From: Chiloscyllium plagiosum
Taxonomy: Eukaryota
Direction: 5' to 3'
DNA: 64,000 nucleotides
NCBI RefSeq assembly: GCF_004010195.1
Contig: NC_057749.1
Location: forward strand, 5,597,634-5,661,633
Positions 16,066 to 60,239 of this stretch are shown piece by piece; the stretch's first letter is position 1; each line of letters opens with the position of its first letter. Below the pieces are notes generated by a model that was not told where the DNA came from, made no database searches, and was given only the letters and a program-made list of their open reading frames with translations. The position numbers and the translations under genes are program-made.

Positions 16066-17223
16066 GTTATGGACCAGGCCAGACCACTTAAAACATTTCA
16101 AGAAAGTAGCCCAGACCCTAACTTTGCTAGCTGTTTTAAGCAGGTGTAACATGAATATTCCAGGAGTGATGCACCTGATCAAACCATTTAATTTTAAACA
16201 AGACAGAGTTTATTTACAAGATTACTGAATGAAACACAAACAAAAGAGAACAGAATAGAGAATAAAGAGGTAAAAACAATGACTGCAGATGCTGGAAACC
16301 AGATTTTGGATTAGTGGTGCTGGAAGAGCACAGCAGTTCAGGCAGCATCCAAGGAGCAGCGAAATCGACGATCTTCTGAATTTTTTTCTCTGTCTAATTT
16401 TTTTTTGCGGGGAGAAAATGAGGACCGCAGATGCTGGAGATCAGAGCTGAAAATGTGTTGATGGAAAAGCGCAGCAGGTCAGGCAGCATCTAAGGAGCAG
16501 GAGAATCAACGTTTCGGGCTTGAGCCCTTCTTCAGGAATCTTCTTCAGGAAGATTCTTCAGGAATTTTTCAGGAATCTTCAGGAATTTTCAGGAATCTTC
16601 TTCAGGAAAATTCTTCAGGAATTTTTTTTGCACCGAGGTGTAAAGTGTGTGATCATTTTATGTATAGTATATTTTACTTTTTAACTAGTAGCATATCGAA
16701 ATCGACGATTTCGAAGCTCCTTGGATGCTGCCTGAACTGCTGTGCTCTTCCAGCACCACTAATCCAGAATATAGAATAACTTAACCTATCCGAAAACCCA
16801 ACAGACTGTCGCAATTTAATGATGCCGTTTCAATTACTTGCAACAATCCCCCATGAACACCCCTTGGCACAAGACGTAAAATCCAACACAGGTCTTACAG
16901 GACAGATGTCAGAGAGAGGGAGGATCAGCATGGACCTGCTTCTTTGGGTCCTGCAGCTTCACAACAGACTGACCGCTTTCAGTGAACAGCCAGACCAAAA
17001 CCAAACCAGAGATAAGCTGAGCTTGGAGAACTGGCCACTCCCCTTTCATTGTACAGTGTTTTTTTTTAAACTGGAAAGCCCTTTGCCTAAGGAAGTATCT
17101 GTTAACCATAATCAAAATGGCCCTAAAACCCACCTAAGCCAGACCTTCTGGAATCGCTGCTTTTATGACCTCTCTGAAAAAAAATGCCAAGGATGGCATA
17201 ACCTTGTTTAAGGGACAGCATCA
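16066..17223 (-). mobile_element. Solo-LTR-like element interrupted by a nested insertion
   Basis: Reverse complement shares both ends and internal blocks with 24156-24727. Confidence 0.55.
16266..16764. mobile_element. Palindromic Penelope-type element with a captured internal segment
   Basis: TSD CAGAATA(G/T)AGAATAA at 16251-16265 and 16765-16779; inverted arms. Confidence 0.75.
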
Positions 17224-18607
17224 TCTCTAACTGAAATGGAAGCCAAATTAGGGTTATACAGCTGAAATATCAGGAGATCTCCACAACTTGGCGAATTCAA
17301 CTGATGCACGTTTTTAATTGTGTAAGACAATGTTGCTTTTCAAAGCAGTGGGATCTCTACTTTGAAACCGAGTGGCACCAAGAGCCTTTGAATGAAGGAA
17401 TGATTGTTTGATGAAAGCCCTTAGATCAGTTAAACTTCAGTTTGCAACAAATCTTTAAGTGCAGGGCAACCAGACACTTCAGAGCCTATGAATGGAATGT
17501 ACCTCTCTCTCTTGCACCTCCCCATCCCCCTTTCAGTGTGAGTGAAGTAAGAAAACTGAAAAAAACAATTCTAGCAAGAAATGACCTATCACTGGATTGT
17601 CTACTGACGTAAAGATTGACTATTACTTTACAAACAACATCACATCATCATTGCTGAAATCAAAATAAACTGAGAGAGGCAATTTAAACTATCCTCATGG
17701 TTTTGACAACTGATCTTCGGAATTTTTTTCTCTGTCTAATTTTTTTTGCGGGGAGAAAGTGAGGTCTGCAGATGCTGGAGATCAGAGCTGAAAATGTGTT
17801 GCTGGAAAAGCGCAGCAGGTCAGGCAGCATCCNNNNNNNNNNNNNNNNNNNNNNNNNNNNNNNNNNNNNNNNNNNNNNNNNNNNNNNNNNNNNNNNNNNN
17901 NNNNNNNNNNNNNNNNNNNNNNNNNNNNNNNNNNNNNNNNNNNNNNNNNNNNNNNNNNNNNNNNNNNNNNNNNNNNNNNNNNNNNNNNNNNNNNNNNNNN
18001 NNNNNNNNNNNNNNNNNNNNNNNNNNNNNNNNNNNNNNNNNNNNNNNNNNNNNNNNNNNNNNNNNNNNNNNNNNNNNNNNNNNNNNNNNNNNNNNNNNNN
18101 NNNNNNNNNNNNNNNNNNNNNNNNNNNNNNNNNNNNNNNNNNNNNNNNNNNNNNNNNNNNNNNNNNNNNNNNNNNNNNNNNNNNNNNNNNNNNNNNNNNN
18201 NNNNNNNNNNNNNNNNNNNNNNNNNNNNNNNNNNNNNNNNNNNNNNNNNNNNNNNNNNNNNNNNNNNNNNNNNNNNNNNNNNNNNNNNNNNNNNNNNNNN
18301 NNNNNNNNNNNNNNNNNNNNNNNNNNNNNNNNNNNNNNNNNNNNNNNNNNNNNNNNNNNNNNNNNNNNNNNNNNNNNNNNNNNNNNNNNNNNNNNNNNNN
18401 NNNNNNNNNNNNNNNNNNNNNNNNNNNNNNNNNNNNNNNNNNNNNNNNNNNNNNNNNNNNNNNNNNNNNNNNNNNNNNNNNNNNNNNNNNNNNNNNNNNN
18501 NNNNNNNNNNNNNNNNNNNNNNNNNNNNNNNNNNNNNNNNNNNNNNNNNNNNNNNNNNNNNNNNNNNNNNNNNNNNNNNNNNNNNNNNNNNNNNNNNNNN
18601 NNNNNNN

Positions 18608-19262
18608 TTATAGCTCAAACCCTCCAACCCTCGCAACATCCTTGTAAATCTTTTCTGAAACCTTTTGAGTTTTACAACATCCTTCCTATAATAGGGAGAC
18701 CAGAGTTGAATGTAATATTCCAAAAGTGGCCTCACCAATTCCAGTACAGCTGCAACATGACACCCCAATCCCTATACTCAATGCTCTGACCAATAAAGGC
18801 AAATATACGAAATGCCTTCTGCACTATCCTGCCTACCTGTGATTCCACCTTCAAGGAACTATGAACTTGAACTCCAAGGTCTTTTTGTTCAACAACACTC
18901 CCTAGGATCTTCTCATTAAGCTCAGCCCTGATTTGCCTTTCCACAATGCAACACCTCACGTACATTTAAATTAACTCCATCGACACAGCTGACCAATGTT
19001 CCGTTGTACTCTGAGATAATCTTCTTCACTGTCCACTACACCATCTATTTTGGTATCATCTGCAAACTTACCAACCATAAGTCTGATATTCACATCCAAA
19101 TCATTCATATAAATGACCAAAAGCAGTGGATCCACCTCCAATCCTTGAGGCACGCCGGCCTCCAGTTTGCAAAACAACTCTGCACCACCACTCTCTGTCT
19201 TTAACCTTCAAGCCAATTTTGCATCCACATGACTAGTTCCCACTGGATTCCATGTGGTCCAA
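18608..19262 (-). mobile_element. CR1 LINE RT fragment
   Basis: GVPQG, KFADDTK and LEYYIQLWSP motifs. Confidence 0.85.
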
Positions 19263-20504
19263 TCTTGTATTTTGCCAGATGTTTGAAAATCTTTAAATAT
19301 ATGTTACACATACTTTGGTTTACTCTATTTTAGTTTTATTTCTTTTATTTGCATTGTTGTGAAAACCCAGATTTGCAGTATTGTGAGCTTGTGTTTCAAT
19401 GACATTGTTAAACCAAAACAAAACTATGATTTATCAAGCAGAATTTCAGTCTGAGGTTTGACATGTCCATCAATAGCATCAGCTGAATCATAATACTGCC
19501 TTAATACTTGTGTCAAACTGACAGTTTTTTTTGTCTATTTAATTGAGAATGAGTACATATGTATTTGGATTTTTAAGGGCGTATAGTTAAGTCATGTAGT
19601 AGTAGATTAGAAATCATTTCTCTTCTTTGTTATCTGTTGGAATTGAATACAAATTTATTGTCATGTGTGCTTTTACATGAAAAATACAGTGAAAAGTTTA
19701 TGTCACCCAACCACAGCACGTACAATGAGAGAAGTCATACATAATAATAAAGAAAAGTAAAATTGAGAAAAAGTTTATCACAGTTCCGTTAATGGTTCCT
19801 AGGATTGGGGAAAGTTGATTTAGAAATGATGGAATACCTTGAGGATGCAGCCGGATGAGACCATCATTCTGGAAGAAGACCACCGCTCCTGGAATACTGC
19901 CTGGAAGCCTCCACCAAAGAAAATCACCATGCCTGGCCAAGACCATCACTTCTGGATGAGAATTGCCTGTCAGAAAGCTGGACACTGAAGACAAAGAAGA
20001 CCTCCACATAGGGACAAGACCTCCATGCCAGAACAAGACCACCATACTGGGCCGAGGTCACCTTTCTCCTCCATCATGTGCCTAGGCCTAGTGGCGGATC
20101 TGGAGCATCTGCCACTAGGCCTAGCCTGTGACTCCAAGCCATGGCGAGTCAACCTTAGACATGCTAGAAGACCCTGGGCTGAGGTGCAGCCATGTCCGGC
20201 TTGGCCTGGCATTGCCATAGGCTTAAGTTAACTAGTGAATCTGACTGGCAGTCACGTGAATCTCTTGCTGCCTGAGCAGGGACTAACATCTGAGGGCTCG
20301 CACCAAAACTGGGAGATGTGACTCATAGACTAGTCAGACAATAGCCAAACATTGCCATACTAACTGAATGATAATTTAGAGACAAATCCTTTTAATAGTT
20401 AATTCTGATACAATAATTCAACTTATTTTCTGTTAATGACAAATTATGAAATGAATTGCTTTTAGTCTAAACAGGAGTCAGATGACCAAATGGATAACTT
20501 TGCT

Positions 20505-21083
20505 GGTGAATCGTGACTTTGGTGGTGAATAGGTGACATTGGCAGTGAATAGGGACTTTAGCATTGAATGGGAAACTTTGGTGGTGAATGGATGACTTTG
20601 GCAGTGACGGGGTGACTTTGGCAGTGAATCGGTGACTTTGGCATTGAATGGGAAACCTTGGTGGTGAATGGGTGATTTAGTGGTGAATGGGTGATTTAGT
20701 GGTGAATGGGTGATTTAGTGGTGAATGGGTGTCTTTGGCAGTGAATGGGTGACTTTGGCATTGAATGTGTAACTTTGGTGGTAATTAGGTGACTTTGATG
20801 GTGAATAAGTGACTTTGGCATTGAATGAGAAACTTTCACGGTGAATGGGTGACTTTGGTGGTGAATGGGTGACTGGCGGTGAATGGGTGACTTTGGCGGT
20901 GAATGGCTGACTTTGGTGTTGATTGGGTGACTTTGGTGATGAATAGGTGACATTGGCAGCGAATGGTGACTTCGGCAGTGTATGGGTATCTTTGGCGGTG
21001 AATGGGTGACGTTGGTGATGAATAGGTGACTTTGGCATTGAATGGGAAACTTTGGCGGTGATTGGGTGACTTTGGCAGTGAAT
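20505..21083. repeat. Minisatellite, ~20 bp unit GGTGACTTTGGTGGTGAATG
   Basis: Directly visible tandem array. Confidence 0.92.
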
Positions 21084-21585: not shown

Positions 21586-21978
21586 TTGAAGATGCCAGTG
21601 TTATACTAGGGTGTATAAAGTTAAAAATCACACAACACCAGGTTATAGTCCAACAGGTTTAATTGGAAGCATTAGCTTTCGGAGCGCCGCTCCTTCATCA
21701 GGTGATTGTGGAGGACACAATTGTAGGGCAGAATTTATAGCAAAAGTTTACAGTGTGATGTAACTGAAATTATACATTGAAAAAGACCTTGATTGTCTGT
21801 TGAGTATTTCATCTGTTCGAATATCATGACAGTTTTACCTCTTTCATGTGTAAATCACAAAACCTTTTCTAACACCAACATATTGTCTAGCTAACACCAA
21901 TTGTTACAGTTAACCTGAGAATGCAACTTTTAAAAAAAAACCTGTTGGACTATAACCTGGTGTTGCGTGATTTTTAAC
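21586..21978. mobile_element. Penelope-type short element, family 2, with inverted ends and hammerhead motif
   Basis: TSD TCTCCTGA(A/T)GATAAT at 21571-21585 and 21979-21993; inverted repeats at 21618-21660 and 21938-21979. Confidence 0.75.
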
Positions 21979-22203
21979 TCTCCTGATGATAATGGCAAAG
22001 TTTTACTGGAACATGGGGTCCACTCCGTCATTAGAGAGAGATGACTAATGGTGGTTTAACCTGACGATCATAATGCTTTGGGTGAGGTGACAGACTGAGA
22101 ATTAGAGTCCTTCATGATCTCTTGAAGGGACAGTGGGTCTGTTTCCCTGTAACTGAGCATGTCCTAAATCATGGATTTATGAAGGGGGCTGGTTAGTTCA
22201 GTT

Positions 22204-22326
22204 CATCATTCCTGATGAAGGGCTTTTGCCCAAAATGTCAACTCACCTTCTCCTCGGGTGCTGCCTGACCTGCTGTGCTTTTCCAACCTCACACTCCCCA
22301 TTCTGATCTCCAGTCCTCATTTTGTC
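22204..22326 (+). mobile_element. Penelope-type short element, family 1
   Basis: Exact 15 bp TSD CTGGTTAGTTCAGTT at 22189-22203 and 22327-22341; CTGATGAAGGGCTTTTGCCC motif. Confidence 0.8.
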
Positions 22327-22780
22327 CTGGTTAGTTCAGTTGGCTATCGTCCAGTCAGAGCAACACTGGCAGCTTGGGTTCAATCCTCCGTTTCCAATGA
22401 GGTTGACTTTGGAAATGACCTCTGGGACTAAAGGCAAGGTCAAACCATCGCTGACCAAAAGGATCTTAGAAAGAACCACCGCGGATATGAAACTTTAACT
22501 TTGCTTCTCTTACCACGAATGATGCCGGGTTTCTCCAGCATTTTCTGCTTTTATTTCAGATCTGCAATATTTTGCTTTGTTGTAACGGTGACGGAACTGG
22601 GAGACCTACCATAGATTAAAACTGGAGGAGTATAGATTGGCTATAGGTCTTGAAGAAGTTGCAGAGATGTGGAAGGGAATGAGGCCATTCATGGATTTGA
22701 AAAGAAAGATGAGAACTTTTAAACCAAAAACAGGAGCCAATGTAGGTCAACCAGCATAGAAATAATGGATGTACAGGAGA

Positions 22781-29435: not shown

Positions 29436-29558
29436 GAGTCAACAAGTGTGGTGCTGGAAAAGCACAGCCGGTCAGGTAGCATCTGAGGAGCAGGAGAGTC
29501 AACGTTTCATCAGGAATGTGGGGGATCCCCAAGGAGGCTGCAGTCCTCACTTTCTCCG
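29436..29558. mobile_element. Penelope-type short element beside the last DUOX acceptor
   Basis: TSD AAGAGATT(G/A)TTT at 29424-29435 and 29559-29570. Confidence 0.75.
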
Positions 29559-29769: not shown

Positions 29770-30230
29770 GATGCTGCCAAAGCGTTTCATCTTGCACTCA
29801 TCAGGACAGATGCAAGAATACCAAATTTCAAAGAGAGCAACAATTTATACTGCATGAGAAAAAGGTGCTGAGTTGTTGGCAAGTGAGCTCTGATTGGGCC
29901 AGGTGTTGCTATGGAGAATACAATAGGAAATATTGTTTTCATTCTAAATAACTGTGCAACATAAATTGTAGTCGAGAGTGTGATACTGGAAAAGCACAGC
30001 AAGTCAGGCAGCATCCGAGGAGCAGGAGCAGGAGCTTATGCCCAAAACATCGATTCTCCTGCTCCTCTGATGCTGCCTGTCCTGCTGTGCTTTTCCAGTT
30101 ACACACTCTTGACTCAGATCTCCAGCATCTGCAGTCCTCACTTTCTCCCAACATAAATTGTTACTTCCTTTGAAATTTGGTATTCTTGCATCGGTCCTGG
30201 TGTGTGCAAGACCAAAAGCTTTGATAGTTT
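29770..30230. mobile_element. Inverted-arm element (family 4) with nested palindromic family-1 insertion at 29970-30148
   Basis: GCAAGAATACCAAATTTCAAA / TTTGAAATTTGGTATTCTTGC arms; inner TSD CAACATAAATTGT at 29957-29969 and 30149-30161. Confidence 0.7.
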
Positions 30231-31083
30231 CACTTTCTTATGGTCAGGTAACTATTTATATACCTCACATACTTCTGCTTCTTGCTGCATTTTCATTTCC
30301 ATTGGGAGGCAAATATAGAAATGCTCAGGGAGAATAATTCATGTTGCTAGTGTGTTGGGTTCTTAGTATTATCCCGGCCCCTGAAGCTGGGATGGAGAAA
30401 GCAGACACATAATTTTGATTTTTCCTGATGCTAATTGAGAGATAAATGTTGGCCAGAATATATGTATTGGAAAAACTGCTCCAGCATGTTTAACATCCAC
30501 CTGGGCAGAGACATAGGGCCTCAGTTAATACCTCGTTAGAAAGATACCACCGATAGTGCAGTACTCCCTCAGTAAAACACAGGAATAGCAGCCTTGACTT
30601 TGATGCTCCAGTCTTGGAATGAGATTCAACACTGAGCGTCCTGACCCAGACACAAGAGTTTGACCTCTTGAGTCACAGCTGACACTCTCAATGACATGCA
30701 AGGCCACAAAAAAGAGTTGGCAATTCCTGAGGCACTGGTCATATCTTCTCAATTTGGAAGCGTATCTAAGACTGGGACAAACCTATAAGGACAGATAAGA
30801 ACTTCCTTCTCAAGACTGTCACCGCCGCCCCAGCCATCAATTGCCAAAGGCATGATGTTCCTCACAACGAAGATCTAACGGTGTGAAATACAGTGGGTTC
30901 TGATATATCGTGTGGCCTCAAATTAGAAGAAAGTCATGCCATTTAAGCAATCGGTAAGTAAAATTCGCGTTTTGCAAATAGCGGTCTAAATTCTTCAATC
31001 ACATTAAAGCCAATTCGCGTTGCAGAAACACGCGTTACAACAGAACCGACTGCACAATGTCGAACCCTTACACCAGTACTCAC

Positions 31084-33990: not shown

Positions 33991-34734
33991 TCCTTTGTCT
34001 GTCTGACTGTTCTTCTCTCTCTTTAGGCTCTTTCCCCACCCATTGTTTGCTTCTTACCTCTCACCCCACCATACCTTCTGTATAAAAAAAAGCTTCCTAG
34101 CTACCATCAGTTCTGACAAAGGGTCACTGGACCCGAAACGTTAACCATGATTTCTCTCCACAGATGCTGCCAGACCTGCTGAGCTTTTCCAGCAGTTTCT
34201 GCTTGGTGGTTCCGATTTCCAGCAACACAGCTCTTTAGAGTTTTTGTATCTAATTCCTTCTTGAAAACATTCAAAGCTTTGGCCTCGATCACTTTCTGTG
34301 GCAGGGAATGGCCCAGGCTCACCACTCTCTGGGTGAAGAAACACTTCTTAATTTCTCCCGACGGGGATCCATGCAATGTATAAATGTGGGAAACACGGTA
34401 TTAGCAAAGTAACCACAAGTGAAGGGAAGCTTAATCAGGACCCTAAAGTCCTGGATATTTAATGCTGTTGCAACTACATGCTCTATACCAGGTTCTGAGC
34501 TTCTGGTTGCTACCAGGATGTCTCTCCTGCTAACAGGAAATGACATGGAGTTATTTCACGGGCAGTGATCGAGCTTTCTCTGGGGAAGACAGATATATAT
34601 TTGAAAAGAAGGAATTGCAAGGCTGTGGGAAAGGGGGGGCTGGGATTCAGACAGAGGGGAGTTTCAGCCCTTTGCTTTGCAGAAGTGGAATCTTTGGCCA
34701 CCCTGTGGGACACAAGATGAAGAAAGATAAATGT

Positions 34735-40918: not shown

Positions 40919-41770
40919 ATTGTGTCACTTCATTATGAGCCAATGGCTAACAGACAGCCAGTGTAGAGAGGATACTTTCAAAGTGGCAACAACTCTTTAT
41001 AGAGAGAGATAATGTGATTCTCAGAGTGGTGTTGTCTGGCAGTCTAGGTGGCAAGATTTGTAGTGGAGATACTCAGGGTCTAGTCCTGCTATAAATGTCC
41101 TAAGACGGACAAAGGACGGTCAAAGAAATAACTTGTTTTGGACATTGCCCATCATGTCCTCAGGATGTTGCAAAGCATTTGGCAGCAAATTAATTAGCAA
41201 CATTCTGGGGACACTTGGAACATGGAGAAGGTGGAAGCAAATGGCCAGTTTCAGAATGAGATCCACAAGAAGAATCCTGAGGGTAAGCTGGATGAAGAAA
41301 GGCTGAACGAAGTTCATGATAATTCTGAAATAATACTGAAAGGTGACAGTGCGGGAGGATTGAGCCTAATCATCATCAGGTGGATTAAAAGAGAGACAGT
41401 GAAGGAACACAAGAATGGGGGTAGACCTTTCACCCCCTCAAACCTGTCCCTTCATTCAGTGAGATCATGACTAATCTGTGACCTAATTCCATATACCTGC
41501 CATATCCCTGAATAACTTTGCTTAACAAAAATCTATCTATCTCAGATTTATCCTCTAATCCAATATGTGCTGCAGTTTGTGGAATAGAGTTGCAAGCATT
41601 TATCATCCTTTGTGTGTAGAAGTGTTTCCCTAAGGAAGTGACATCAAAGACAACAAGAAGTCATCCATTGTTGCAATGATGCCACTCAGCTTGGCACACA
41701 GAAACAATGACAATTACATTCCAAATAAAATTACATTTATTGCTGATAGAAATCTCTACATTCTCCCTAC

Positions 41771-42003
41771 CTTGGGGTATCTACCGAGAAGCGATATATT
41801 TTCTGGAGAGTAGGTTTCCCGTAATCGAATTGTCCATGGTCCTACTGCCCTGATGTGAAGGCTGAGGGTGTCTTCGTGCGGAGCTGAAGTCAGAGTGAAA
41901 GGATGGTACTCATTCGTTCCCAAAGCAAGGCTTGCTATACGTACCCACTGACCGGATTTATATTCAAAATCTCTCGGGCGTTTAAATTCAAGATTAGTAA
42001 CCC
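41771..42003 (-). CDS. DUOX: DUOX exon, FAD-binding domain ([46 protein letters not shown])
   Basis: 233 nt; [13 protein letters not shown] and HIRAVGPWT motifs. Confidence 0.97.
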
Positions 42004-42039
42004 CTACAAAGAAAAATGCAACAGGTTATTTGCCAGAGT

Positions 42040-42925: not shown

Positions 42926-43149
42926 ATGGGAAGTGCTGTTGTTTGGGGAATGGGAAGAAGTGCTGTTAGGGGAATGGGAAGTGCTGCTGTTTGGGGAATG
43001 GGAAGTGGTGATGTTTGGGGTATGGGGAGTGGTGATGTTTGGGGAATGGGAAGTAGTGATGTTTGGGGAATGGGAAGTCTTCCTGTTTGGGGAATGGGGA
43101 GTGCTGCTGGTTGGGGAATGGGAAGTGGTGATGTTTTGGGAATGGGAAT
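42926..43149. repeat. G-rich minisatellite, 24 bp unit GGGAATGGGAAGTGGTGATGTTTG
   Basis: About 9 tandem copies. Confidence 0.92.
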
Positions 43150-44107
43150 TTCTTTGGAGTTTGCTACAGGTCACAGGGAGTTTCAGTCCAGGTTCAACAG
43201 TGTCTCTGCTGGACCACATTGCCTTTGAGCCATTAGGGCTGGGTTTCACTACGGCTTTGGGCCTCACCCATCCCCATTTGTGGTCTTGTGCTCAAACTCG
43301 CTGAGAGTGAGAACACTTGACAATAATCCGAGAACTGGCTGCCTCGAGCTTGCTGCATAATGACGGGCCGTTCTCAACCCTAATGCCTCCTCTAGCTCTG
43401 ACCCTCCAGCTGCCTCAAATACATGTAAATATGGTCTGGTTCAAGTAAGAGATGACTTTGGTTTGTTTGGATAGAGTCAAACTCCAATGTTTGCTTGTTT
43501 CCTTGATATGCCTCTGAACGGAACCAAGTAGCATTTGTTACTGTCTATGTCTGTAAAGGATGTGAATTAAGTGTACTTTGACATTAATAAAAAGCTTCCT
43601 CTAGCTCTGAAACCTTGGCAGCCCCACCAGACAGCATGGGGGTCTCAAAATGGAGGTTGACTCAGAGAAAACTAGTTACTGGTTCACATCTTGGTGGAAC
43701 TAAACAGTCATCGGCCTGAAGTGTCAAGTCTGTTTCTTTCTCCACAGGTGCTGCAGTTCCTGTTCTTTTTTCCTCTTTAGAATTCATTCACAGGTGAGGG
43801 TGTTGCTGGTCAGTGCCAGCATTTATTACCCATCCCTAAAGACCCAGAGGGCAGTCAAGAGTCAACTAAAAGCAACCCCAAAGAATTGAAGATACTGAGA
43901 ATCAGCAACAAGAACAGAAAATGCTGGGAAAACTCAGAAGATCTGGCAGCGTCTGTGGAAGCAAATCAGAGCTAACATTTCAGATCCAGTGACCGTTCCT
44001 CAGAACTGATTATAGATAGGTCTGAGAGTCAAGCACATTGCAGTGAGGCTGGAGTCACATGTAGGCCAGACCAGGTAAGGTGGGCCATTTCATGGAGTTT
44101 TTTCCAT

Positions 44108-44876: not shown

Positions 44877-47086
44877 CTGTTTCAAAAAGATGCAGATGTG
44901 TCTATTTCTAGAGTTGATTTTACTCCTTTGATCCTATTTATGTTTTCACATTTCTGGCCAGCACTCTATTTTGTCTCTTCCCACCAATGTCACTTTCTCT
45001 CTCACTCATTGTCTCCACATAATCACATACTTTCTCTCCTTAGATTGATGGAGCAATGAAGATCTGAGTTTTGACTTATCGTTTCTCATAAGCTTTATGT
45101 ACATCATTTTCCCCCTTCTCGCATTGTAGTTGAGAAATATTAAACATTCTTTCCCCCGACCTCGAATCTCTGAAATGCCTTACTGTGTTCCTCTTGCAAC
45201 CAACAGACTGTAAAGAGCCCAAGCCCAATATCTGCAATGCACGACTTCTTGATTTACCACTCATTGCTCCTAATCTTTCCAAACTTGACTATGCAAAGTA
45301 GCAGACGGTCTAATTTATGAAGACTAAAAGACTTCTGCAACAATATGGCTGCCAATTTGATTGGAGTCAATTATGGCTGATGACATGTTTTAACAGGAGA
45401 TTGCTATCCAATCTAGATAAATTCCCCCAACAATGTCTTTGCTGCATTCTCTGGTTAGATCATCAAACAAATTCTAATGTCCTTCTTGAAGCCAGCTCCA
45501 TAAACATTCAGGTAAAACCTCAAGTAAAATCAACTAAGATGAACTTGACACTGTGACGGATGGATAAAAAGTGTCTACCCCACCATGTTCTGCTTTCTCA
45601 ACTCTCAAATGGTCAAGGAATTTGTTGCAAAGTCACTCTGAAGGTCTCCTTGAAGTCTGGCAACATTTATGTTATTGACTGAGGGTTCCAATTGCCCGTA
45701 GGACAACAATAGTCTTTGAGTCTACTGGTGCGATGGGTAGGGGCCCTGCTTCTGTGTCCTGGGTTTGAGTTCCACACGAGAATTTGATGGCTCGGAAAAC
45801 CAGATTCACAACAAAGCCAAAAGGTGTTGAATGTCAGTCTGCTAATACTTACAACCTATCAGTGACAGGTGGGGAGTGCAGGAGCAATTCCTGCACAGCC
45901 TTGTGCTGGAAAGGAAGTCGAAGCCCCTACTGTCATTATCCACAGCTCCAGACCACGTAAAAGTGTACATTCCCACAGCAACTCTGGCTCCATGGATGAA
46001 CTCCAACACTTTAACCGTGTCTCTGTGACGTGTGAATATGATCTGGGGTGTCTCAACCACATTATGGACCGAAAAATTATCTCTGTAAATGTTATGGGCA
46101 GCCAACTCTTAAAATACCTGCTCGCCATTCTGTGAAAAATATTACACACTCTTTCCACTGTGTAATATATTTCTCATGCTCACATTCATTTTCATTTGGC
46201 ACTGTTAATGTCCTTCACACCTGTTGTTTAGATTATTCTGCAATTATGGACTGATTCCTTAGATACTGCAAACAAGGTGATGTAATTAAATGTCAGAGGG
46301 GTCCTGTTCTTAGTGATCCTTAGTGCCAGGGCAGCTATAAATAAACCATTAGACCATGAACTTTTGACTGCAGCTTCACTAAGTACTTGTACTGTTGCCT
46401 GCAATTCTGGCAAGTTCTTGGTCGACTGAGTCACCCCTTTTGTTTGTTTCCAGCTCACAAACCATGGCTTGAAAATGAATACCAGTCACACTGAAATATG
46501 AGTAATTTAATTGCCACTAATTAATACCAATACAATAGACGACACATATTAGTAGGAGCTGAGAAGGTGAACGGGAAGCAAATTTCTAAACTCTATGGAT
46601 TTTTGTCACATGCATGCACATTAACTATTGTCTGGTAAAGAACAAACTTAGCCACATGACTGGAAAGAGGATGGGCAGATGTTACTGGTTGGTAAAATCT
46701 TAGAAGGGGAGTTAGCTTCCTATTACAAGAAGAGTCTCAGGGCAATTTTTACAGAATGGTAAAACAAGACTCCACAAGAGACCTGGGAGGTGCTTAAAGA
46801 CATATTTTATTGATCCATAAAATATAGGAAAGTTGTAGGTTTAATCAGAAGTCTACATTAATTATTCGTGCTTGAAGCAATGCAGTGGGTGTCAATAGCC
46901 ATGGGGTCTGGAGAACATTGCTCAAAGTTCCTCCCCTTGCAAAAAGGATCACTGCTTAGAGTCATAGAGTCATAGAGATGTACAGCACAGAAACAGACCC
47001 TTCAGTCCAACCCGTCCATGCCGACCAGATATCGCAACCCGATCTAGTCCCACCTGCCAGCACCCGGCCCATATCCCTCCAAACCC

Positions 47087-47201
47087 GAAACGTCGATTTC
47101 GCTGCACCTTGGATGCTGCCTGAACTGCTGTGCTCTTCCAGCACCACTAATCCAGAATCTGGTTTCCAGCATCTGCAGTCATTGTTTTTACCTTGTTTTT
47201 T
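47087..47201 (+). mobile_element. Penelope-type short element nested in CR1
   Basis: Exact 13 bp TSD TCCCTCCAAACCC at 47074-47086 and 47202-47214. Confidence 0.8.
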
Positions 47202-48561
47202 TCCCTCCAAACCCTTCCTATTCATATACCCATTCAAATGCCTTTTAAATGTTGCAATTGTACCAGCCTCCACTACATCCTCTGGCAGCTCATTCTATAC
47301 ATGTACCATCCTCTGTGTGAAAAAGCTGCCCCGTAGGTCTCTTTTATATCTTTCCCCTCTCACCCTAAATCTATGTCCTCTAGTTCTGGACTCCCCCAAC
47401 CCCAGGGAAAAGACTTTGTCTATTTATCCTATCCATGCGCCTTATAATTTCTTAAACCTCTATAAGGTCACCCCTCAGCCTCCGACGCTCCAGGGAAAAC
47501 AGCCCCAGCCTGCTCAGCCTCTCCCCATAGCTCAAATCCTCCAACCCTGGCAACATCCTTGTAAATCTTTTCTTAACCGTTTCAAGTTTCACAACATCGT
47601 TCCGATAGGAAGGAGACCAGAATTGCACGCAATATTCCAACAGTGGCCTAACCAATGTCCTGTACAGCTGCAACATGGCCTTCCAACTCCTGTACTCAAT
47701 CCTCTGACCAATAAAGGAAAGCATACCAAACGCCTTCTTCACCCTCCTATCTACCGGCGACTCCACTTTCAAGGAGCTATGAACCTGTACTCCAAGGTCT
47801 CCATCTGGTCAAGATCCTGTTGTAATCTGAGGTAACCTTCTTAACTGTCCACTACACCTCCAATTTTGGTGTCATTTGCAAACTTACTAACTGTACCTCT
47901 TATGCTCGCATCCAAATCATTTATGTAAATGACAAAAGTAGAGGACCCAGCACCGATCTTTGTGGCACTGCACTGGTCACAGGCATCCAGTCTGAAAAAC
48001 AACCCCCCACCATCACCCTCTGTCTTCTACTTTTGAGCCAGTCCTGTATCCAAATGGCTCGTTCTTCCTTTATTCCGTGAGATCTAACCTTGCTAATCAG
48101 TCTCCCATGGGGAACCTTGTCGAACACCTTACTGAAGTCAATATCGTTCACATCTGCCGCTCTGCCCTCATCAATCTTCTTTGTTACTTCTTCAAAAAAC
48201 TCAATCAAATTTATGAGATATGATTTCCCATACACAGAGCCATGTTGACTATTCCTAATCAGTCCTTGCCTTTCCAAATACATATACATCCTGTCCCTTA
48301 GGATTCCCTCCAATAACTTGCCCAAGATGAACTTGTAAGGCGATCTCAGCTATCTGTAAGAACAATAGGGTGATTATGGTTGGGGATTTTAACTTTCCGA
48401 ACATAGACTGGGACTGCCATTGTGTTAAGGGTTTAGATGGAGAGGAATTTGTTAAGTGCGTACAAGACAATTTTCTGATTCACTATGTGGATGTAACTAC
48501 TAGAGAAGGTGCAAAACTTGACCTACTCTTGGGAAATAAGGCAGGGCAGGTGACTGAGGTG

Positions 48562-48766
48562 AAAATGTGTTGCTGGAAAAGCGCAGCAGGTCAGGCAGCA
48601 TCCAAGGAGCAGGAGAATCGATGTTTCGGGCATTAGCCCTTCTTCAAAAGGGTTCATGCCCAAAACGTTGATTCTCCTGCTCCTTGGATGCTGCCTGACC
48701 TGCTGCGCTTTTCCAGCAACACATTTTCAGCTCTGATCTCCAGCATCTGCAGTCCTCACTTTCTCC
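48562..48766. mobile_element. Palindromic Penelope-type element nested in CR1 ORF2
   Basis: TSD CAG(G/A)TGACTGAGGTG at 48547-48561 and 48767-48781; near-perfect inverted arms. Confidence 0.82.
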
Positions 48767-51040
48767 CAGATGACTGAGGTGTCAATGGGGGAGCACTTTG
48801 GGGCCAGTGACCATAATTCTATTCATTTTAAAATAGTGATGGATAAGGATAGACCAGATCAAAAAGTTGAAGTTCTAAATTGGAGAAAGGCCAATTTTGA
48901 CGGTATCAGGCAAGAACTTTCAAAAGCTGATTGGAGGCAGATATTTGCAGGTAAAGGGACAGCTGGAAAATGGGAAGCCTTCAGAAATGAGATAACGACA
49001 ATGCAGAGAAACTATATTCCTGTTAGGGTGAAAGGAAAGGCTGGTAGGTATAGGGAATGCTGGATAACTAAAGACATTGAGGGTTTGGTTAAGAAAAAGA
49101 AGGAAGCCTATGTCAGGTATAGACAGGATAGATCGAGTGAATCCTTAGAAGAGTATAAAGGCAGAAGGAGTATACCTAAGAGGGAAATCAGGAGGGCAAA
49201 AAGGGAACATGAAATAGATTTGGCAAATAGAGTTAAGGAGAATCCAAAGGGATTTTACAAATACATTCAGGACAAAAGGGTAACTGGGGCGAGAATAGGG
49301 CCCCTCAAAGATCTGCAAGGTAGCCTTTGTGTTGAGCCACAGAAAATGGGGGAGATACTAAACGAGTATTTTACATCAGTATTTACTGTGGAAACGGATA
49401 TGGAAGATGTAGAAAGTAGCGAAACAGATGGTGGAACCTTGCAAAATGTCCATATTACAGAGGAGGAAGTGCTGGATATCTTGAAATGCATAAAGGTGAA
49501 TAAATCCCCAGAACCTGATCAGGTGTACCCTAGAACTCTGTGGGAAGCTAGAGGAGTGATTGCTGGGCCTCTTTCTGAGATATTTGTATCATCAATAGTC
49601 ACAGGTGAGGTGCCGGAAGACTGGACGTTGTTTAATGTGATGCCACTGTTTAAGAAGGGCGGTAAGGACAAGCCAGGGAACTATAGACCAGTGAGCCTTG
49701 TTGTGCATGGGTTCTTTAAAGCCTAAAATAGTGGATTAGGATATCTATCTCTCTGCCCTCGAAGAGCTTTGTCGAGCAAACAATATGCAGTTTATTGTAG
49801 AACTGCAACCACTTACAGTTGGCATGAATATGACCCTCATTATTTCAGAGATTCACAGCACACTAGCTCTGGTCTGTTTCCTACAAACTCCTTCTTTACA
49901 CTGACTGAGTCCCTCAGGGAGTGCTGCTTACTGTACTCAATCAAGTCGAGTGATTTATGAACATCTGACTTACAAATGCCTGTAGTTATGAATATGATCC
50001 CATAAAAAGGGTGTAATTTCAAAGACCTGTCATATGAACATTTCTTTCATTTAACGTAATCCTGCACTGTGTTCCAACTTGCGTACAAATGAACTAGCAA
50101 TCAAACTCCAGAATGGAACCCAGGGACTGCCTGTATTAAGCCTTTTTGACGCATACACAATGCTGCTTGGGCAGATGTCAGTTAAGAATAAAAGGTTGAA
50201 TGCTTCCCATCCATCATCACTGCAAATAGCTGACTACTATTTTCCTGAAGGGCCCACACATCAAAACTAGCCACTGTGCTGAGGAACAAGGTAACGTCCA
50301 TAGGTGGAACCATGTCTCAGAGAAGGGAAAGGAGAATAGAAAGTAGGCAGGAAAAGAAAAAAAAATCATAAAGTTGCAGAGGAGAGCTGCTTAAGATAAA
50401 TAAATATTGAATCAAATTCAATGACAGTACATTTTAAAGATTGGAAAATGAGGATAGGCTTTCCCACTGACAGTGGGCACATTTATCCGCTCATGATGTG
50501 AATCAAAAATGTAAGCATTGTTCCTGTAATTTTGAAATTGTTTTGGTTAGCCATTATCAAAATGCAGAAGACACAATTAAGGTCATATTTTTATTGATCC
50601 TTAAAAGCCCTGAGGCAGTGGGTGCTTGGCAGCCTTTCTTGCGATTGTTTTGTTAACTAATTGGCGTGCCAGACCACTTTAGAGGAAATTCAAGGTTACA
50701 TAGTGTTATATGGCTCGAGAATGAACCACAGGCTAGTTTGAGCAGAGGTAGCAGATCTGCTTCCCTGAGGATATGAATGAATCAGTTGGTTTCTATTACT
50801 CACACTTTGGATGCTTGCATGATCTACTTTTGATACCAAGTTGCAAACGAAAAACATTTATGAACTTGCCCCAGCCTCAGGGTGGCTCACTCAGTACCAC
50901 AGTCATTCCATTACTACGCCACATTCGTAAATGGGCATTCAACAAATCTCACATTCAAACTAACCTAACCTTTGATTCCAATGTGATTTTTCACTAGGAC
51001 CTGTAGACACTCTTGTGAAGTTCTAAAGATATCTCCTTAC

Positions 51041-52109: not shown

Positions 52110-52542
52110 AAGGAGGTGCCAGTGTTGGATTGGGAAGGACAAAGTTAAAAATCACACCACAGTAGGTTATAGTCCAATAGGTTTATTTGGAAGCACTCGC
52201 ACTCACACCTGATGAAGGAGCAGCGCTCTGAAAGATTATGCTTTCAAATAAACCTGTCGGACCATAACCTGGCATGATGTGATTTTTAACTTTACCTGAG
52301 ATAATTAAAATTCACATAGCACCCTGGAAAAGGAGTGGAGGTGCCGGTGTTGGACTGGGGTGGACAAGGTCAGAAATCATATGACACCAGATTATAGTCC
52401 AACAGGTTTATTTGAAATCACAAGCTTTTGTAGTGTTGCTCCTTCATCAGGTTCAGCTAATGGAGTAATAGTGCTCTGAGAGTTTTTAATTTCAAATAAA
52501 CCTGTTAAATCAAAACCTAGTGACGTGTGACCCCTGAACTTG
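52110..52542. mobile_element. Two adjacent palindromic family-2 elements
   Basis: Arms related to 21586-21978; CTGATGAAGGAGCAGCGCTCTGAAAG at 52209. Confidence 0.7.
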
Positions 52543-54075: not shown

Positions 54076-54175
54076 CCATCATCGTAGAGTGCCTCAGGAA
54101 ATAGGCAGGCTAGTACGCTGAGTGGGTTGGCTGAGAAAGTGTAGATATTGACTGCGTGAGCCGCACTGTGGAGCA
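54076..54175 (-). CDS. DUOX: DUOX exon ([34 protein letters not shown])
   Basis: 100 nt; AG/GT; LHSxxH and LACxFP motifs. Confidence 0.96.
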
Positions 54176-54914
54176 CTACAAATAAAAAAAAGCCAACTAA
54201 ATATGTTGTGTAATTAGCTGCGAGCAATATCCCAGTTCTACAATGGGTAATCAATACTGCAGAGTGTGCAGTGGGTTAGAGATCTACCTCTTGTTATATT
54301 CAAATATAACACAAGTGGATGGGACTGAAGCTTCCACCGTGTTACAGTTATTGTTAAGCAGGGAACTCATCAATTTACCAGGACTGCATATATTACAGAA
54401 ACTATTATTGATTCCTGATTGTAACTTACTCAAAATATAATTACGAGGCCAATGCTAAATTGGCCCTGCCACAGCTCAAAGTTATAAAACAATTCAACAT
54501 CACAGTCAATGATGTGCTTTTTGACATGTAATGTAGGAAACATGGCAGCAACTTTGTGCAGAGCATGCTCACAGAAATAGCTCATCTGTTTCCTTTTAGG
54601 GTATTATCCAAAACACCAGGGATAAATTCACCTGTGCCAATGGATCATTTACATGCACCCTTGGAGGCACAGAGAGCCTCAGTTTAATTTTTGTTTGGAA
54701 AGCGAGCATCTCCCTCCAATCATGCAGTACTGCAGAGGAGGGGCTTTTTGAGATCTGGAGGATTTGATCCCAGAACCTTGTGACTCAGAGGCGAGAGCAC
54801 TACCCTCCTCCCCCTGACACTGAGCCATGATTGACGTGGTTCCTTGAAAGCTCAAGGTCAGAGTCAGCGGAATCTCCGTTCACCACTACGCACGCGTATT
54901 GTCATACTCAGTAC

Positions 54915-55145
54915 CTGAGAAAAAGGCAGCAGCCATCGCAACCCAACGATGGAAATCCACGGCTGAATCAAAGGGAATGTAGTGATTCAGGAACGTTTCA
55001 CGTAGGACCGTGATGAGGTTCCGGCACATGGTGAGAAGGATGTACGAGTACATGAAGGAGACTGCGGCTGCCGACCCACGGGCAATTATGAGACCAACTC
55101 TTGTGGTCTGGGGCACTCCCGAATGTTCTCTCAGCACCGCATAGT
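54915..55145 (-). CDS. DUOX: DUOX exon (YAVLREHSG...[49 protein letters not shown])
   Basis: 231 nt; AG/GT; near-identical to DUOX TM region including the heme-ligand His in DFHRW. Confidence 0.97.
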
Positions 55146-55964
55146 CTGAAGGGAAAGGGAGCATTCATCAACATATCACAAACATGCCTTCTTGAACCAT
55201 TGCCACTCTGGGGTAAGGTAGTATACCCACAGTGCTGTTAGGAAGAGAGTTTCAGGATTGGAGCCCAGCAGCATTGCAGGAGTGGAGATATAGTTACAAG
55301 TCAGGATGGATATGACTTTGAAGTACAACTTTTCACACCTATCTTAGCAACAGTTCAATACATTGAAAATATTCTGCCTGTTCACATAACTGTGAATGTA
55401 ACTACTCGATTTAAGTGATATCCTTAGCAACTCGGTAAAGCCTGACCAGACTGTGGGGTTGCTCTGTCATTTGAGAGGCAACTGGTAATGGTTTAACTTA
55501 AGGTCACCACGCCTCAGGCGAGGGGAAAGTTTGAAAAGGTGAAACCTTCACGTTAACTGAAGCTGGTGTGGGAATTGAATCTGCACTGATGGTATCACTG
55601 TTCATTACAAACCAACTGTCCAGCTCCGAGCAACCACTCCATTTGTGAATCACTGTCTCATTTAAATTTGCAATGAGGAGAGGCAACCTTATTGAAACAT
55701 ATAAGATTCTTAAGGGATTTGACAGGGTCGATGTTTCCCCATGTCACTGAGTCTAGGACCAGAGGGCACAGTTTCACAATAAGGGGTTGCAGAGTTGAGT
55801 AGAAATTTCTTCTGTCAGAGAAAAAGTGAATCTGTGGAGCTCTTTGCCACAGAGGTTTGGTCAATAATTATATTCATGGTTGAGATAGATTTTTAATCAG
55901 TAAGGGAATTAAAAGCTATGGGGAAAAGGCAGAAAAGTGGAGCTGGTGATTACCAGGTCAGTCC

Positions 55965-56669
55965 TAGAGTCATAGAGATGTACAGCACAGAAACAGACCT
56001 TTCGGTCCAACTCATCCATGCCGACCAGGTCTGAAATTAATCTGGTCCAATTTGCCAGCATTTGGCCCATATCCCTCTAAACCCTTCCTATTCATGTACC
56101 TATCCAGATGCCTTTTAAATGTTGTAATTGTACCAGCCTCCACCAGTTCCTCTGGCAGCTCATTCCACACACACACGACCCTCTGCGTGAAAAAGTTGCC
56201 CTTTAAGTCCCTTTTAAATCTTTCCTCTCTCACCTAGTTCTGGACTCCCCCAACCCAGGGAAAAGACTTTGTCTATTCAGATCAGACTTTGTCTATTCAA
56301 AGCCCTTCATCAGGCTTTTGCCCGAAACGTCCATTTTCCTGTTCCTCGGATGCTGCCTGATCTGTTGTGCTTTTCCAGCACCACTCTGATCTAAACTCCA
56401 GCATCTGCAGTCCTCACTTTTGCCATTTTGTCTAATCACCCTATTCATGCTTCTGATGATTTTATAAACCTCTATAAGGTCACCCCTCAGCCTCCGATGC
56501 TCCAGGGAAAACAGCCCCAGCCTATTCAGCCTCTCCCTATACACAAACCCTCCAAACATAATAACAAAGCGTTTCTGAACCCTTTAAAGTTTCACAACGT
56601 CCTTCCTATAGGAGGGAGACCAGAATTACATATTCGAAAGTAGCCTAACCAATGTCCTGTACGGCCGCA
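55965..56669 (-). mobile_element. 5'-truncated CR1 with a nested Penelope-type element (~56300-56425)
   Basis: CR1 tail and RRLRGDLIEVYKI; insert flanked by TTTGTCTA(T/A)TCA. Confidence 0.8.
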
Positions 56670-59413: not shown

Positions 59414-59542
59414 TATTCTTCCCCCCACCCCGATTGAAATTTAGCAAAGATTTGCTCCTGATATAAAAGCAACTTGTGACTTAAACTGATTGAATAATCC
59501 TGCGGCTGTGATACTTAGCTAATATTGTATTTCATTTCTTAC

Positions 59543-59641
59543 TTCTTGCCAAATCGTTTCCGCAAATCCAGGACAAAATGATCCGGGCTCAAGGTTTCAG
59601 CTGGACTGGTTTCTTGTTGGTTTTCTGTGCCCTTTGACCCT
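59543..59641 (-). CDS. DUOX: DUOX internal exon (linker after EF-hands; GSKGTENQQETSPAETLSPDHFVLDLRKRFGKK)
   Basis: ttttcag acceptor and GTAAGA donor; 99 nt; ends in KRFGKK as the corresponding human DUOX exon does; phase joins the next exon. Confidence 0.85.
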
Positions 59642-60140
59642 CTGAAAAATGTCAAAGTGATGGCTTGTGAGGCTTGAAAGAAAATTTACCGAAGTCCCAT
59701 GTGAAAACAACTTCCCTAGCTGTTGTCTAAATGAGGTTTACCAGGTTTACACAAGAAAATACTGACGTGAATCAAAAACACCTTTAAGAAACAGGAACAA
59801 CAAATACCGGTTTATTGTAGCAACAACCACCTTTGCAAAACATCCGAAAACACTTCCTATCTAATCAATTAAGTATAATTGCTGTGACACAGGAATACAG
59901 GCATGCTGAATTGTGCTAAGCAAGATCCCATAAAATGCATTAGTTGTGTCAAACAATTAGCTCATGTAGTGTGCTGTGTTTGTTGAAATCAGTGGTGGGC
60001 AGTACACATGCTGACTCCCTTCTTTGCTTTGAATAGTATTATTGCTTGAATTGCCAAATGAGGCTGCACTGATGTGTTATCTCTAAACCAGCACCTCTAA
60101 CAGTGCAGCACTCCCTCAGTATTGCACTGATGGATCAGAC

Positions 60141-60239
60141 CTTCCTGATGAAGGGCTTTTGCCCGAAACGTCGATTTTGCCTGTCTTCGGATGCTGCCTG
60201 AATTGCTGTGCTCTTCCAGCACCACTGATCCAGAATCTG
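60141..60239 (+). ncRNA. Penelope-type element fragment with an intact minimal hammerhead ribozyme core
   Basis: CTGATGA-A-GGGC-TTTT-GCCC-GAAA-CG-TC at 60145-60172. Confidence 0.6.

Follow-up and report, generated by a model that had tools for sequence, protein, structure and literature searches.

Very short retroposons opening with a predicted minimal hammerhead motif of Penelope type in the shark Chiloscyllium plagiosum

Do short repeats dispersed in the genome of Chiloscyllium plagiosum carry a ribozyme motif, and what kind of element are they? We examined one window of 64,000 nucleotides (the whole stretch analyzed here, from contig NC_057749.1), for which an earlier note had claimed at least four families of otherwise dissimilar short elements with a minimal hammerhead architecture. 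All of the strings that it cited were present at their claimed coordinates and strands. The claim held for families F1 to F3, in which boxes, stem II, and palindrome are all present, and failed for F4, which has no stem II. F1 to F3 open with what is, by its boxes and predicted pairing, the minimal hammerhead motif known from Penelope-like elements (PLEs). The units appear to be a very abundant shark case of an already known kind of PLE-hammerhead element, with self-cleavage only predicted.

The hammerhead core in F1, F2, and F3

The three families share the CUGANGA box, one unpaired A, a stem II of 4 to 5 bp that opens with a G-C pair, the GAAA box, a palindrome, and U-H. Structural parsing of 13 sequences (10 copies from the window and 3 from metagenomes) placed the unpaired extra A in all 13 and a G-C pair at 10.1-11.1 in 11, the two exceptions being decayed copies. 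Positions 15.2-16.2 were palindromic, with departures of the CpG decay type. As had been claimed, helix III is reduced to a palindrome before U-H, ACGU in F1, F3, and the metagenome PLE and AGCU in F2. Across families, G-C and A-U both occur at pair 3 of stem II, pair 4 can be C-G, U-A, or G-C, and 15.2-16.2 can be either C-G or G-C, while the loop sequences vary freely. The stems covary between families while the loops drift, which agrees with the claim that stems differ with pairing mostly kept. Helix I was described as 3 to 4 bp, but parsing gave 2 bp in F1 and 3 bp in F3, and F2 has 2 bp after a mismatched 1.1-2.1; in the metagenome PLE copies, it has 3 to 6 bp. The families are also less dissimilar than had been thought. 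Although F1 and F2 had no BLAST match with each other in a self-comparison of the window, F1 and F3 have the 3' half of the element in common and are for that reason not independent. There are three families, two of them related. The unit RNAs are not unusually stable (z, -1.74 to +0.63).

By itself, the loose two-box pattern is not above chance: CTGANGA-N8-24-GAAA matched nine times, compared with 4.18 ± 2.02 expected, and nine matches were reached in 3 of 100 shuffles. The strict motif is enriched over chance. With a descriptor that combined both boxes, 0 to 1 extra nt, a stem II of ≥4 bp, helix III as a palindrome, and U-H, three intact motifs were found in the window (60145 plus, 16535 minus, and 21701 minus), while simulated sequences held a mean of 0.063 (order 1) or 0.097 (order 3), and none of the 300 in either set had two or more matches. 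When the first box was permuted in 180 ways on the real window, the true box gave three matches and every other box at most one. The earlier note had also asked for a scan with hammerhead models, and here the Rfam hammerhead families gave no match, whether at the gathering score, with an E value of ≤10 on the entire window, or when 81-base pieces were scanned. A metagenome relative with the same core and a 6-bp helix I (L001) was likewise missed by these models; the null result therefore mainly shows that the motif is non-canonical.

F4 (29775 to 29808, minus strand) was rejected as a hammerhead; we regard its match to the two boxes as due to chance. It is without stem II, and its sole paralogue, which lies in an inverted copy of the flanking sequence (30141 to 30241), differs at both boxes.

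Copies, ends, and insertion sites

The units are discrete retroposons of ∼90 to 135 nt whose 5' end lies 3 nt upstream of the core. Copies of F1, F3, and F2 formed 24 merged intervals, covering 2,249 of the 62,975 non-N bases, or 3.6% of the window. The copies listed earlier are real, except that of F4, but the list was incomplete.

Two F1 copies have an intact motif. One (60142 to 60262, plus; core, 60145 to 60172) defines the 5' boundary of the family at 60142; the other (16370 to 16538, minus; core, 16508 to 16535) has a body ending at 16409, followed by a 39-nt tail (16408 to 16370). The same tail, here 38 nt (17749 to 17712), ends a minus-strand copy interrupted by an assembly gap (17712 to 17832) with a different downstream flank; the tail of 38 to 39 nt is optional, carried by these two copies. 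A microsatellite-like expansion of a 10- to 13-nt unit occupies 16528 to 16624, upstream of the copy at 16370 to 16538. Other F1 copies are decayed in the motif (22204 to 22326, plus; G12>A and CpG>TG), have a deletion of the stem II hairpin (29444 to 29516, minus), or begin with 16 nt that are the reverse complement of the motif start (56304 to 56420, plus). 5' truncation also occurs, and 5' ends inside the unit vary among copies. The truncated copies of F1 subfamily B begin near the predicted cut site (16268 to 16370, minus), carry a 9-nt inverted 5' extension (16697 to 16770, plus), or are cut within the motif and lie in another repeat (47087 to 47201, plus).

F3 is represented by a plus-strand copy at 34096 to 34205, with first box CTGACAA (A at position 8), a 5-bp stem II, and a 3-bp helix I, and by a minus-strand copy at 43912 to 44020, in which the first box is intact and stem II and helix III show decay of the CpG type. 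Two further copies are F3-like and decayed (63121 to 63213, plus; 7341 to 7414, minus, the latter a weak match). F2 has one copy with an intact motif (21587 to 21706, minus; core, 21673 to 21701) and a 3' fragment (21934 to 21979, plus), besides two inverted pairs.

Head-to-head inverted 5' copies were found at 12.6, 29.9, 48.6, and 52.1 to 52.5 kb. The F1 pairs span 12603 to 12762 (stem II hairpin lost in the plus arm), 29970 to 30148, and 48562 to 48770, the last in a LINE endonuclease region. In the first F2 pair (52112 to 52294), the minus arm (52112 to 52196) is truncated just past the predicted cut site and the plus arm (52206 to 52294) has a near-intact motif; in the second (52336 to 52520), a minus arm (52336 to 52453) meets a decayed plus arm (52454 to 52520).

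Target-site duplications (TSDs) mark the carriers as real retroposons. Four insertions are flanked by direct repeats, of 13 bp for the copy at 47087 (47074 to 47086 and 47202 to 47214), 11 bp for the pair at 48562 (48551 to 48561 and 48771 to 48781), 15 bp for the copy at 22204 (22189 to 22203 and 22327 to 22341), and 13 bp for the pair at 29970 (29957 to 29969 and 30149 to 30161). For two of the four, contigs from public runs contain the empty site (joints 47073>47202 and 48550>48771). The 3' limit at 48766 and the 5' limit at 60142 are also sharp across many public contigs. The two are joined tail to head (48766>60142) in 47 contigs from DNA run X1 and in two from run X23, where letters may intervene at the joint. 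Within the window, there was neither a same-strand pair of intact motifs nor a tandem array of units.

Duplications of 11 to 15 bp are also compatible with an AP-endonuclease LINE, shark genomes are described as dominated by CR1 LINEs in the part of PMC8455134 covered, and several LINE fragments lie within the window. The units might on these grounds be LINE-dependent SINEs or CR1/L2-type LINE 3' tails with a fortuitous hammerhead-like motif, but we find this very improbable. The F 3' ends have no poly(A) or microsatellite; within the window, the single CR1-like 3' terminus (∼36.7 kb) has an (ATTCA)n tail and no similarity to the F tails; ARAGORN found no tRNA gene and no tRNA-like head in the whole window. 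Moreover, families without relation to one another share the motif, as does a true PLE elsewhere (see below), and inverted 5' copies and an optional tail are hallmarks described for PLEs (PMC8557442, in the part covered).

Relation to Penelope-like elements

The suggestion of a reverse transcriptase (RT) at 1 to 1100 proved correct in that the left edge of the window holds a PLE open reading frame (ORF) fragment (3 to 1216, minus), with the N-terminal region and part of the RT, running off the edge. In a tblastn search with seven PLE proteins, the window matched only at 3 to 1154 on the minus strand; GIY-YIG was found in 13 of 120 among the listed relatives of the fragment. We recognized no motif upstream of this fragment and no similarity between it and the F tails. 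The earlier note's proposal of ribozyme-bearing retroelements possibly mobilized by such an RT stands as far as retroposons with TSDs are concerned, but no shark copy in the window adjoins a PLE ORF.

The same core does sit inside a true PLE elsewhere. The exact 27-nt core pattern was found at nine metagenome loci. At two of these (L004 and L007), the core lies 677 nt past the stop of a GIY-YIG ORF, on the same strand and 100 nt before the end of the insertion, and the ORF aligns to a PLE protein (E value, 7e-44). At another locus (L008), the boundary of a short copy lies 4 nt upstream of the core, and the arrangement at L006 is head-to-head. The tails of F1 and of the metagenome PLE are only marginally similar, to a degree reached by 8 of 500 shuffles. 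The units are very probably derived from PLEs and presumably mobilized by PLE enzymes.

The likeness to PLE minimal hammerheads pointed out in the earlier note extends to the published architecture, as given in the main-text portion covered of Cervera and de la Peña (2014; PMC4209133), in which cartilaginous fishes do not appear. Shared features, among them those singled out in that paper as non-random hallmarks, are the CUGANGA and GAAA boxes, the extra A, G10.1-C11.1, the absence of helix III with a palindromic 15.2-16.2 through which two copies can pair, a genome that holds several families with compensatory changes, copies that mostly stand alone, and opposite-strand pairs 100 to 700 bp apart. 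The shark units differ in having a stem II of 4 to 5 bp, compared with 6 to 8 bp, and a helix I of 2 to 3 bp, compared with 4 to 5 bp, although a Drosophila virilis variant with a 2-bp helix I is a published exception. The PLE motifs lie in the pLTR or 3' region of an element with RT and GIY-YIG, whereas no shark copy in the window is so placed.

In the Poseidon PLE of Anolis carolinensis (PAc), the hammerhead lies ∼100 nt before the start sites of reverse transcription and hence near the 3' end of insertions, and there is an optional tail of 30 to 40 bp (PMC11167929, in the part covered); the shark units resemble PAc in both respects. The PAc motif overlaps the start of the ORF; in contrast, the ATG in the F1 and F2 boxes meets a stop after 17 and 8 codons, respectively (by eye), and the F3 copies have no ATG in the box.

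Neither a promoter nor a tRNA-like part was found in the F units. The hammerheads of the schistosome elements Sm-alpha and Sj-alpha are canonical type I with a helix III. These elements resemble the shark units as short non-autonomous hammerhead retroposons but have a promoter before the ribozyme according to a figure legend of the review (PMC6765202, in the part covered). Animal non-LTR retrozymes are likewise non-coding, have a type I hammerhead, and are thought to be PLE dependent (PMC7229834; bioRxiv 10.64898/2026.07.22.740005); in the single chondrichthyan sampled, they were reported with an average consensus of 363 bp (bioRxiv 10.64898/2026.07.22.740005). Retrozymes are by definition arranged in tandem, every unit having its own hammerhead, whereas the shark units are 90 to 135 nt and dispersed or head-to-head, with tandems seen only as joints in public contigs.

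Proposed propagation and predicted cleavage

Our preferred explanation, to which we assign a probability of about 0.65, is that F1, F3, and F2 are very short PLE-type hammerhead retroposons moved by PLE enzymes in trans. The template RNA would begin 3 nt upstream of the core and be copied by a PLE RT/GIY-YIG enzyme acting in trans, and its insertion would create the TSDs of 11 to 15 bp. It would give rise to copies truncated at the 5' end, often to snap-back inverted 5' copies, and now and then to head-to-tail arrays; a tail of ∼38 nt would be optional. Where a transcript holds two units, the palindromic ACGU or AGCU could pair between them and build helix III, which would allow cleavage after GUC/GUU (F1 and F3) or CUA (F2).

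The variable 5' ends inside the unit could also belong to insertions of ordinary PLEs (∼3 kb at full length) that were extremely truncated at the 5' end and dead on arrival, with no self-propagating short lineage, and 4 of the 9 metagenome loci (L002, L004, L005, and L007) do continue upstream into the PLE 3' UTR. We nevertheless consider such an origin unlikely. In the window, the 14 F1 rows and the F2 copies all stop at most 3 nt upstream of the core, and the letters before 60142 have no consensus among the 116 contigs of run X23 that diverge there (agreement, 0.36). Furthermore, F1 subfamilies A and B and F3 have the same 5' limit, which fits units that founded their own lineages. The short units probably propagate as a non-autonomous lineage.

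Whether the motif is catalytic in the animal is a separate matter. Judged from its sequence, it may self-cleave in vivo, at what we would put somewhat short of even odds. Alternatively, it could be kept as a signal for the PLE enzyme, structural or protein-binding, or be a passenger, with no self-cleavage in vivo. Helix I is weak, and because the motif lies at the extreme 5' end of the unit, the predicted cleavage would part the ribozyme from the reverse-transcribed tail, with no evident benefit to the unit. In the parts of the sources covered, metazoan minimal hammerheads are reported with low activity in vitro (PMC4209133), PAc elements with a mutated hammerhead were still able to insert in vitro and no RNA-seq read had its start or end at the cut site (PMC11167929), and Naiad PLEs thrive without hammerheads, which the authors suggest may merely parasitize PLEs (PMC8557442). 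On the other hand, the catalytic core, H at position 17, and the palindromic helix III are precisely the parts conserved between families, against a background of covarying stems and drifting loops, and a mere hairpin signal would have no need of the CUGANGA and GAAA boxes. The PAc hammerhead did cleave, moreover, and its C3 and G8 mutants behaved as expected (PMC11167929, in the part covered). We hold a non-cleaving role to be a tenable alternative without favoring it.

A bolder proposal, which we offer tentatively and think rather unlikely as a whole, is that the RNA of 90- to 135-nt "mini-Penelope" units, hyper-abundant in sharks, begins exactly 3 to 4 nt before the core. The hammerhead would then mark or create the 5' end of a minimal template holding all that a PLE enzyme needs, and it would have a role other than cutting tandem transcripts to unit length, for example in end definition, dimerization, or snap-back priming. 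Mini-Penelope units, not full-length PLEs, would make up most of the PLE-derived DNA in elasmobranch genomes. The same 5' limit, 3 to 4 nt before the core, recurs in the unrelated PLE family of the metagenome contigs.

A common hammerhead-like plan in short repeats

An earlier note had read at least four families of short repeats in the window as hammerhead-bearing, non-autonomous retroelements, and this was right in kind for three of them: F1, F2, and F3 are hammerhead-bearing, non-coding retroposons of the type of Penelope-like elements (PLEs). All of the sequence strings quoted for the four families were found at the positions and on the strands claimed for them. We parsed ten copies in the window by coordinates and counted stem pairs by script on those coordinates, because a MAFFT alignment of the motifs displaced F2 by one column. 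In this parse, F1, F2, and F3 follow a common plan: 3 nt precede the box CUGANGA, after which come a single unpaired A, a stem II beginning with a G-C pair (4 bp in F1 and 5 bp in F2 and F3) around a free loop of 3 to 4 nt, and then GAAA. The two letters after GAAA give a self-complementary ACGU (F1 and F3) or AGCU (F2), which is followed by a U and then by a letter other than G.

That the stems differ between families while pairing is kept was borne out by the same parse as compensated changes between lineages. Stem II has G-C or A-U at pair 3 and C-G, U-A, or G-C at pair 4; the 15.2-16.2 pair is C-G or G-C, and the loops drift. The changes in decayed copies are mostly of the CpG type.

The fourth family (positions 29775 to 29808, minus strand) was dropped as a chance match, as both boxes are present and nothing pairs between them. 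Its sole relative in the window (30141 to 30241), which duplicates the same flank in inverted orientation, differs at both boxes. A U3-A8 variant of the core was also sought, and all of its matches were unstructured.

The two boxes at the right distance are not by themselves above chance (9 matches to this loose pattern versus 4.18 ± 2.02 expected). A strict descriptor was defined as both boxes with 0 to 1 extra nt, a stem II of at least 4 bp, a palindromic helix III, and U followed by a non-G letter. This descriptor finds three intact motifs in the window, split over two families: F1 at 60145 to 60172 (plus) and 16508 to 16535 (minus) and F2 at 21673 to 21701 (minus). Simulated sequences gave means of 0.063 and 0.097 motifs, with two or more motifs in 0 of 300 simulations under each model. 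When the first box was permuted on the real window (n = 180), the true box alone gave three motifs and the runners-up gave one. Comparing the window with itself by BLAST gave no match between F1 and F2, and F3 shares the 3' half of the element with F1; thus, there are two or three lineages rather than four.

Unit boundaries and insertions

The motif sits in a compact unit. A 19-mer of the F1 body occurs 16 times at up to 3 mismatches, versus 0.01 expected, and a 14-row alignment together with self-BLAST defines an F1 unit of ∼130 nt with a start 3 nt before the core and a fixed 3' terminus. No row of this alignment reaches past the start, and several are truncated inside the unit. F2 has the same plan, with a unit of ∼90 to 125 nt. 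Together, F1, F2, and F3 occupy 24 intervals, or 2,249 of the 62,975 non-N bases (3.6% of the window).

Public contigs from the same and related organisms mark the same boundaries. At the F1 3' end at 48766, 1,643 contigs of a DNA run (X1) continue into unlike sequence beyond, and at the F1 5' end at 60142, 116 contigs of another run (X23) diverge before that point. Empty-site contigs bridge from 47073 to 47202 with 13 shared letters and from 48550 to 48771 with 11 shared letters. Target-site duplications of 13 bp (47074 to 47086 and 47202 to 47214) and 11 bp (48551 to 48561 and 48771 to 48781) lie at these two sites, and further duplications measure 15 bp (22189 to 22203 and 22327 to 22341) and 13 bp (29957 to 29969 and 30149 to 30161). 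No poly(A) or microsatellite tail and no tRNA-like head was found on the F units. Within the window there was no tandem array or same-strand pair of intact motifs, which counts against a working ribozyme. Tail-to-head joints do occur among the public contigs of X1 (47 contigs) and X23 (2 contigs), where letters may intervene between the two sides.

Head-to-head inverted pairs are formed by F1 at 12603 to 12762, 29970 to 30148, and 48562 to 48770 and by F2 at 52112 to 52294 and 52336 to 52520. Three more F1 copies carry inverted 5' extensions of 5 to 16 nt, the shortest of which could be due to chance. Further, two F1 copies with different downstream flanks have in common a 38- to 39-nt extension past the usual 3' end. 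Inverted pairs, 5' truncation, and an extra tail are traits listed for PLEs: PMC8557442 gives, as typical, a high rate of 5' truncation, an inverted 5'-truncated copy adjoining the 5' end, a tail of 30 to 40 bp, and hammerheads near the 3' end.

Two local features adjoin these copies. About 70 nt of flank next to the F1 pair at 29970 to 30148 is present as an inverted duplicate (29778 to 29848, minus, and 30153 to 30223, plus), and the palindrome therefore extends past the element; the duplicate, which contains the rejected fourth family, is located upstream of the left copy of the target site, at a distance of 110 nt. Directly upstream of the intact minus-strand F1 motif, a 10- to 13-nt tandem expansion spans 16528 to 16624; its unit runs into the opening bases of the motif and is similar to the last part of the 39-nt tail.

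Penelope-like elements and the ribozyme question

PLE minimal hammerheads are massively spread in many animal genomes. According to Cervera and de la Pena (PMC4209133), all PLEs have minimal hammerheads in their flanking repeats, and solitary ones occur by the thousands in fishes, coelacanth, frog, and reptiles; they are found in opposite-strand pairs and have low in vitro activity, as dimers only. The hallmarks named there are those of F1, F2, and F3. In an anole PLE, as described in PMC11167929, the hammerhead lies at the pLTR-ORF junction and reverse transcription begins 111 to 118 nt into the ORF, which places the hammerhead ∼100 nt from the 3' end of the insertion. A 2026 preprint (bioRxiv 10.64898/2026.07.22.740005) describes non-LTR retrozymes in its one sampled chondrichthyan and derives them from PLE pLTRs.

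The F1 core also lies behind a PLE gene elsewhere. A scan of metagenome contigs that required an exact match to the F1 core and left the loop free returned nine loci (L001 to L009). They belong to another repeat family that has this core in common with F1; its helix I measures 6 bp in L001 and 3 bp in the other eight copies, which are nearly identical. L007 and L004 each have an ORF that encodes a GIY-YIG domain, and the motif follows the stop of this ORF at a distance of 677 nt, in the same orientation. The two ORFs share 99% identity, and in an alignment with a PLE protein, the ORF covers that protein's C-terminal 325 residues (29% identity; E = 7e-44). The metagenome insertions end 100 nt after the core start, or ∼60 nt later in three loci; these two alternative 3' ends (L003, L004, and L009 versus L005 to L008) are farther apart than the 30- to 40-bp tail described for PLEs is long. 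In the short copy L008, sequence of an unrelated flank starts 4 nt ahead of the core, and L006 is a head-to-head copy; two contigs begin at the same point as the L008 boundary. Thus, the F1 motif belongs to a true PLE elsewhere, and the short form exists there too.

The shark F1 tail resembles that of the metagenome PLE only marginally (score of 33 versus 22 ± 4.3, with 8 of 500 shuffles reaching 33), and the other three comparisons were not significant. The F2 core pattern had no match in the genome-contig and viral-contig collections, the F1 core pattern had none in the viral-contig collection, and no phage record matched the L007 ORF in tblastn. Downstream of its PLE copy, L007 carries an ORF with a Myb/SANT-like DNA-binding domain (4184 to 4495, minus).

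The reverse transcriptase at positions 1 to 1100, cited as an example of a possible type of mobilizer, is a PLE fragment by homology (3 to 1216, minus), and no F copy adjoins this fragment or any other PLE ORF in the window. Its closest relatives are two shark proteins (81% identity); relatives carry RVT_1 and two other Pfam families, with GIY-YIG in 13 of 120 among the matches listed. Pfam gave no match for the fragment itself, whose relatives were found by the homology search. In tblastn of seven PLE proteins, 3 to 1154 was the only match in the window, and no motif was recognized upstream of the ORF (1217 to 1400, minus). The F units may be tied to a particular shark PLE.

Judged from sequence, the shark F motifs may be catalytically active, and several observations weigh against this. 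Helix I, claimed to be 3 to 4 bp, is 3 bp in F3, as claimed, but is only 2 bp in F1 and has a mismatched first pair in F2. The proposed check with covariance models came out negative, with no Rfam hammerhead match in any search mode; these models also miss the L001 copy and thus do not cover this class. When five single units were folded, the stem II hairpin was part of the minimum-energy structure of four and of the centroid structure of the other one. There was neither a hammerhead fold nor unusual stability, as would be expected if two copies were needed to form helix III. Lunse et al. are said to have reported in 2016 that PLE hammerheads cleave as dimers. Because the motif is at the extreme 5' end of the unit, cleavage would sever the ribozyme from the copied part. 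No reads of a raw single-cell RNA run (X22) mapped to the window, a result that says nothing about expression, strand, or cut sites.

With these repeats, a known class gains cartilaginous-fish members that are abundant and whose unit is unusually short and sharply bounded; they reveal no new kind of ribozyme or element. In the available portions of the literature on hammerhead ribozymes and sharks, the supplementary tables of PMC4209133 and of the preprint aside, we found no description of these families. The window shows that very short units running from a ribozyme core to a fixed 3' terminus exist in a sharklike genome in at least two lineages that are unrelated in sequence. With clean target-site duplications and empty sites, they offer a compact natural substrate for asking whether the motif cleaves and how small an RNA can be and still be mobilized by a PLE enzyme. 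For annotation, it is important to note that these abundant shark repeats are probably PLE derived rather than LINE tails.

Neighboring genes and repeats

Exons of a host gene of the NOX/ferric-reductase type lie at 41759 to 42025 and 54889 to 55164, both on the minus strand (FAD_binding_8, E = 1e-13; Ferric_reduct weak at 18.6 bits, below the cutoff). A 5,411-nt contig of a true RNA run (X15) matches 54915 to 55145 only, with 0 differences, and the repeats therefore sit in introns of an expressed gene; RNA contigs of this sort cannot show RNA ends. The F1 pair at 48562 to 48770 splits a LINE ORF (48331 to 49726, plus) within its endonuclease region; this ORF comprises an AP-endonuclease part and the beginning of a reverse transcriptase. 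On the opposite strand is an RVT_1 piece (47924 to 48349).

A very abundant repeat at 46958 to 47835, and in at least 10 other places, has a sharp start near 46958 to 46965 and the highest depth among the public contigs; two of its copies hold F1 insertions. Junctions of the F1 3' end with the start of this repeat (34 to 36 contigs) and with the F2 3' end (38 contigs) are frequent in public contigs. The end of a CR1-like LINE ORF (36083 to 36725, plus; Pfam match to ALKBH8_N) is followed by a 3' UTR closing with (ATTCA)n. Minisatellite arrays are located at 20489 to 21083 (period, 20 nt), 13788 to 14476 (64 to 86 nt), 34730 to 35085 (52 nt), and 42926 to 43148 (24 nt).
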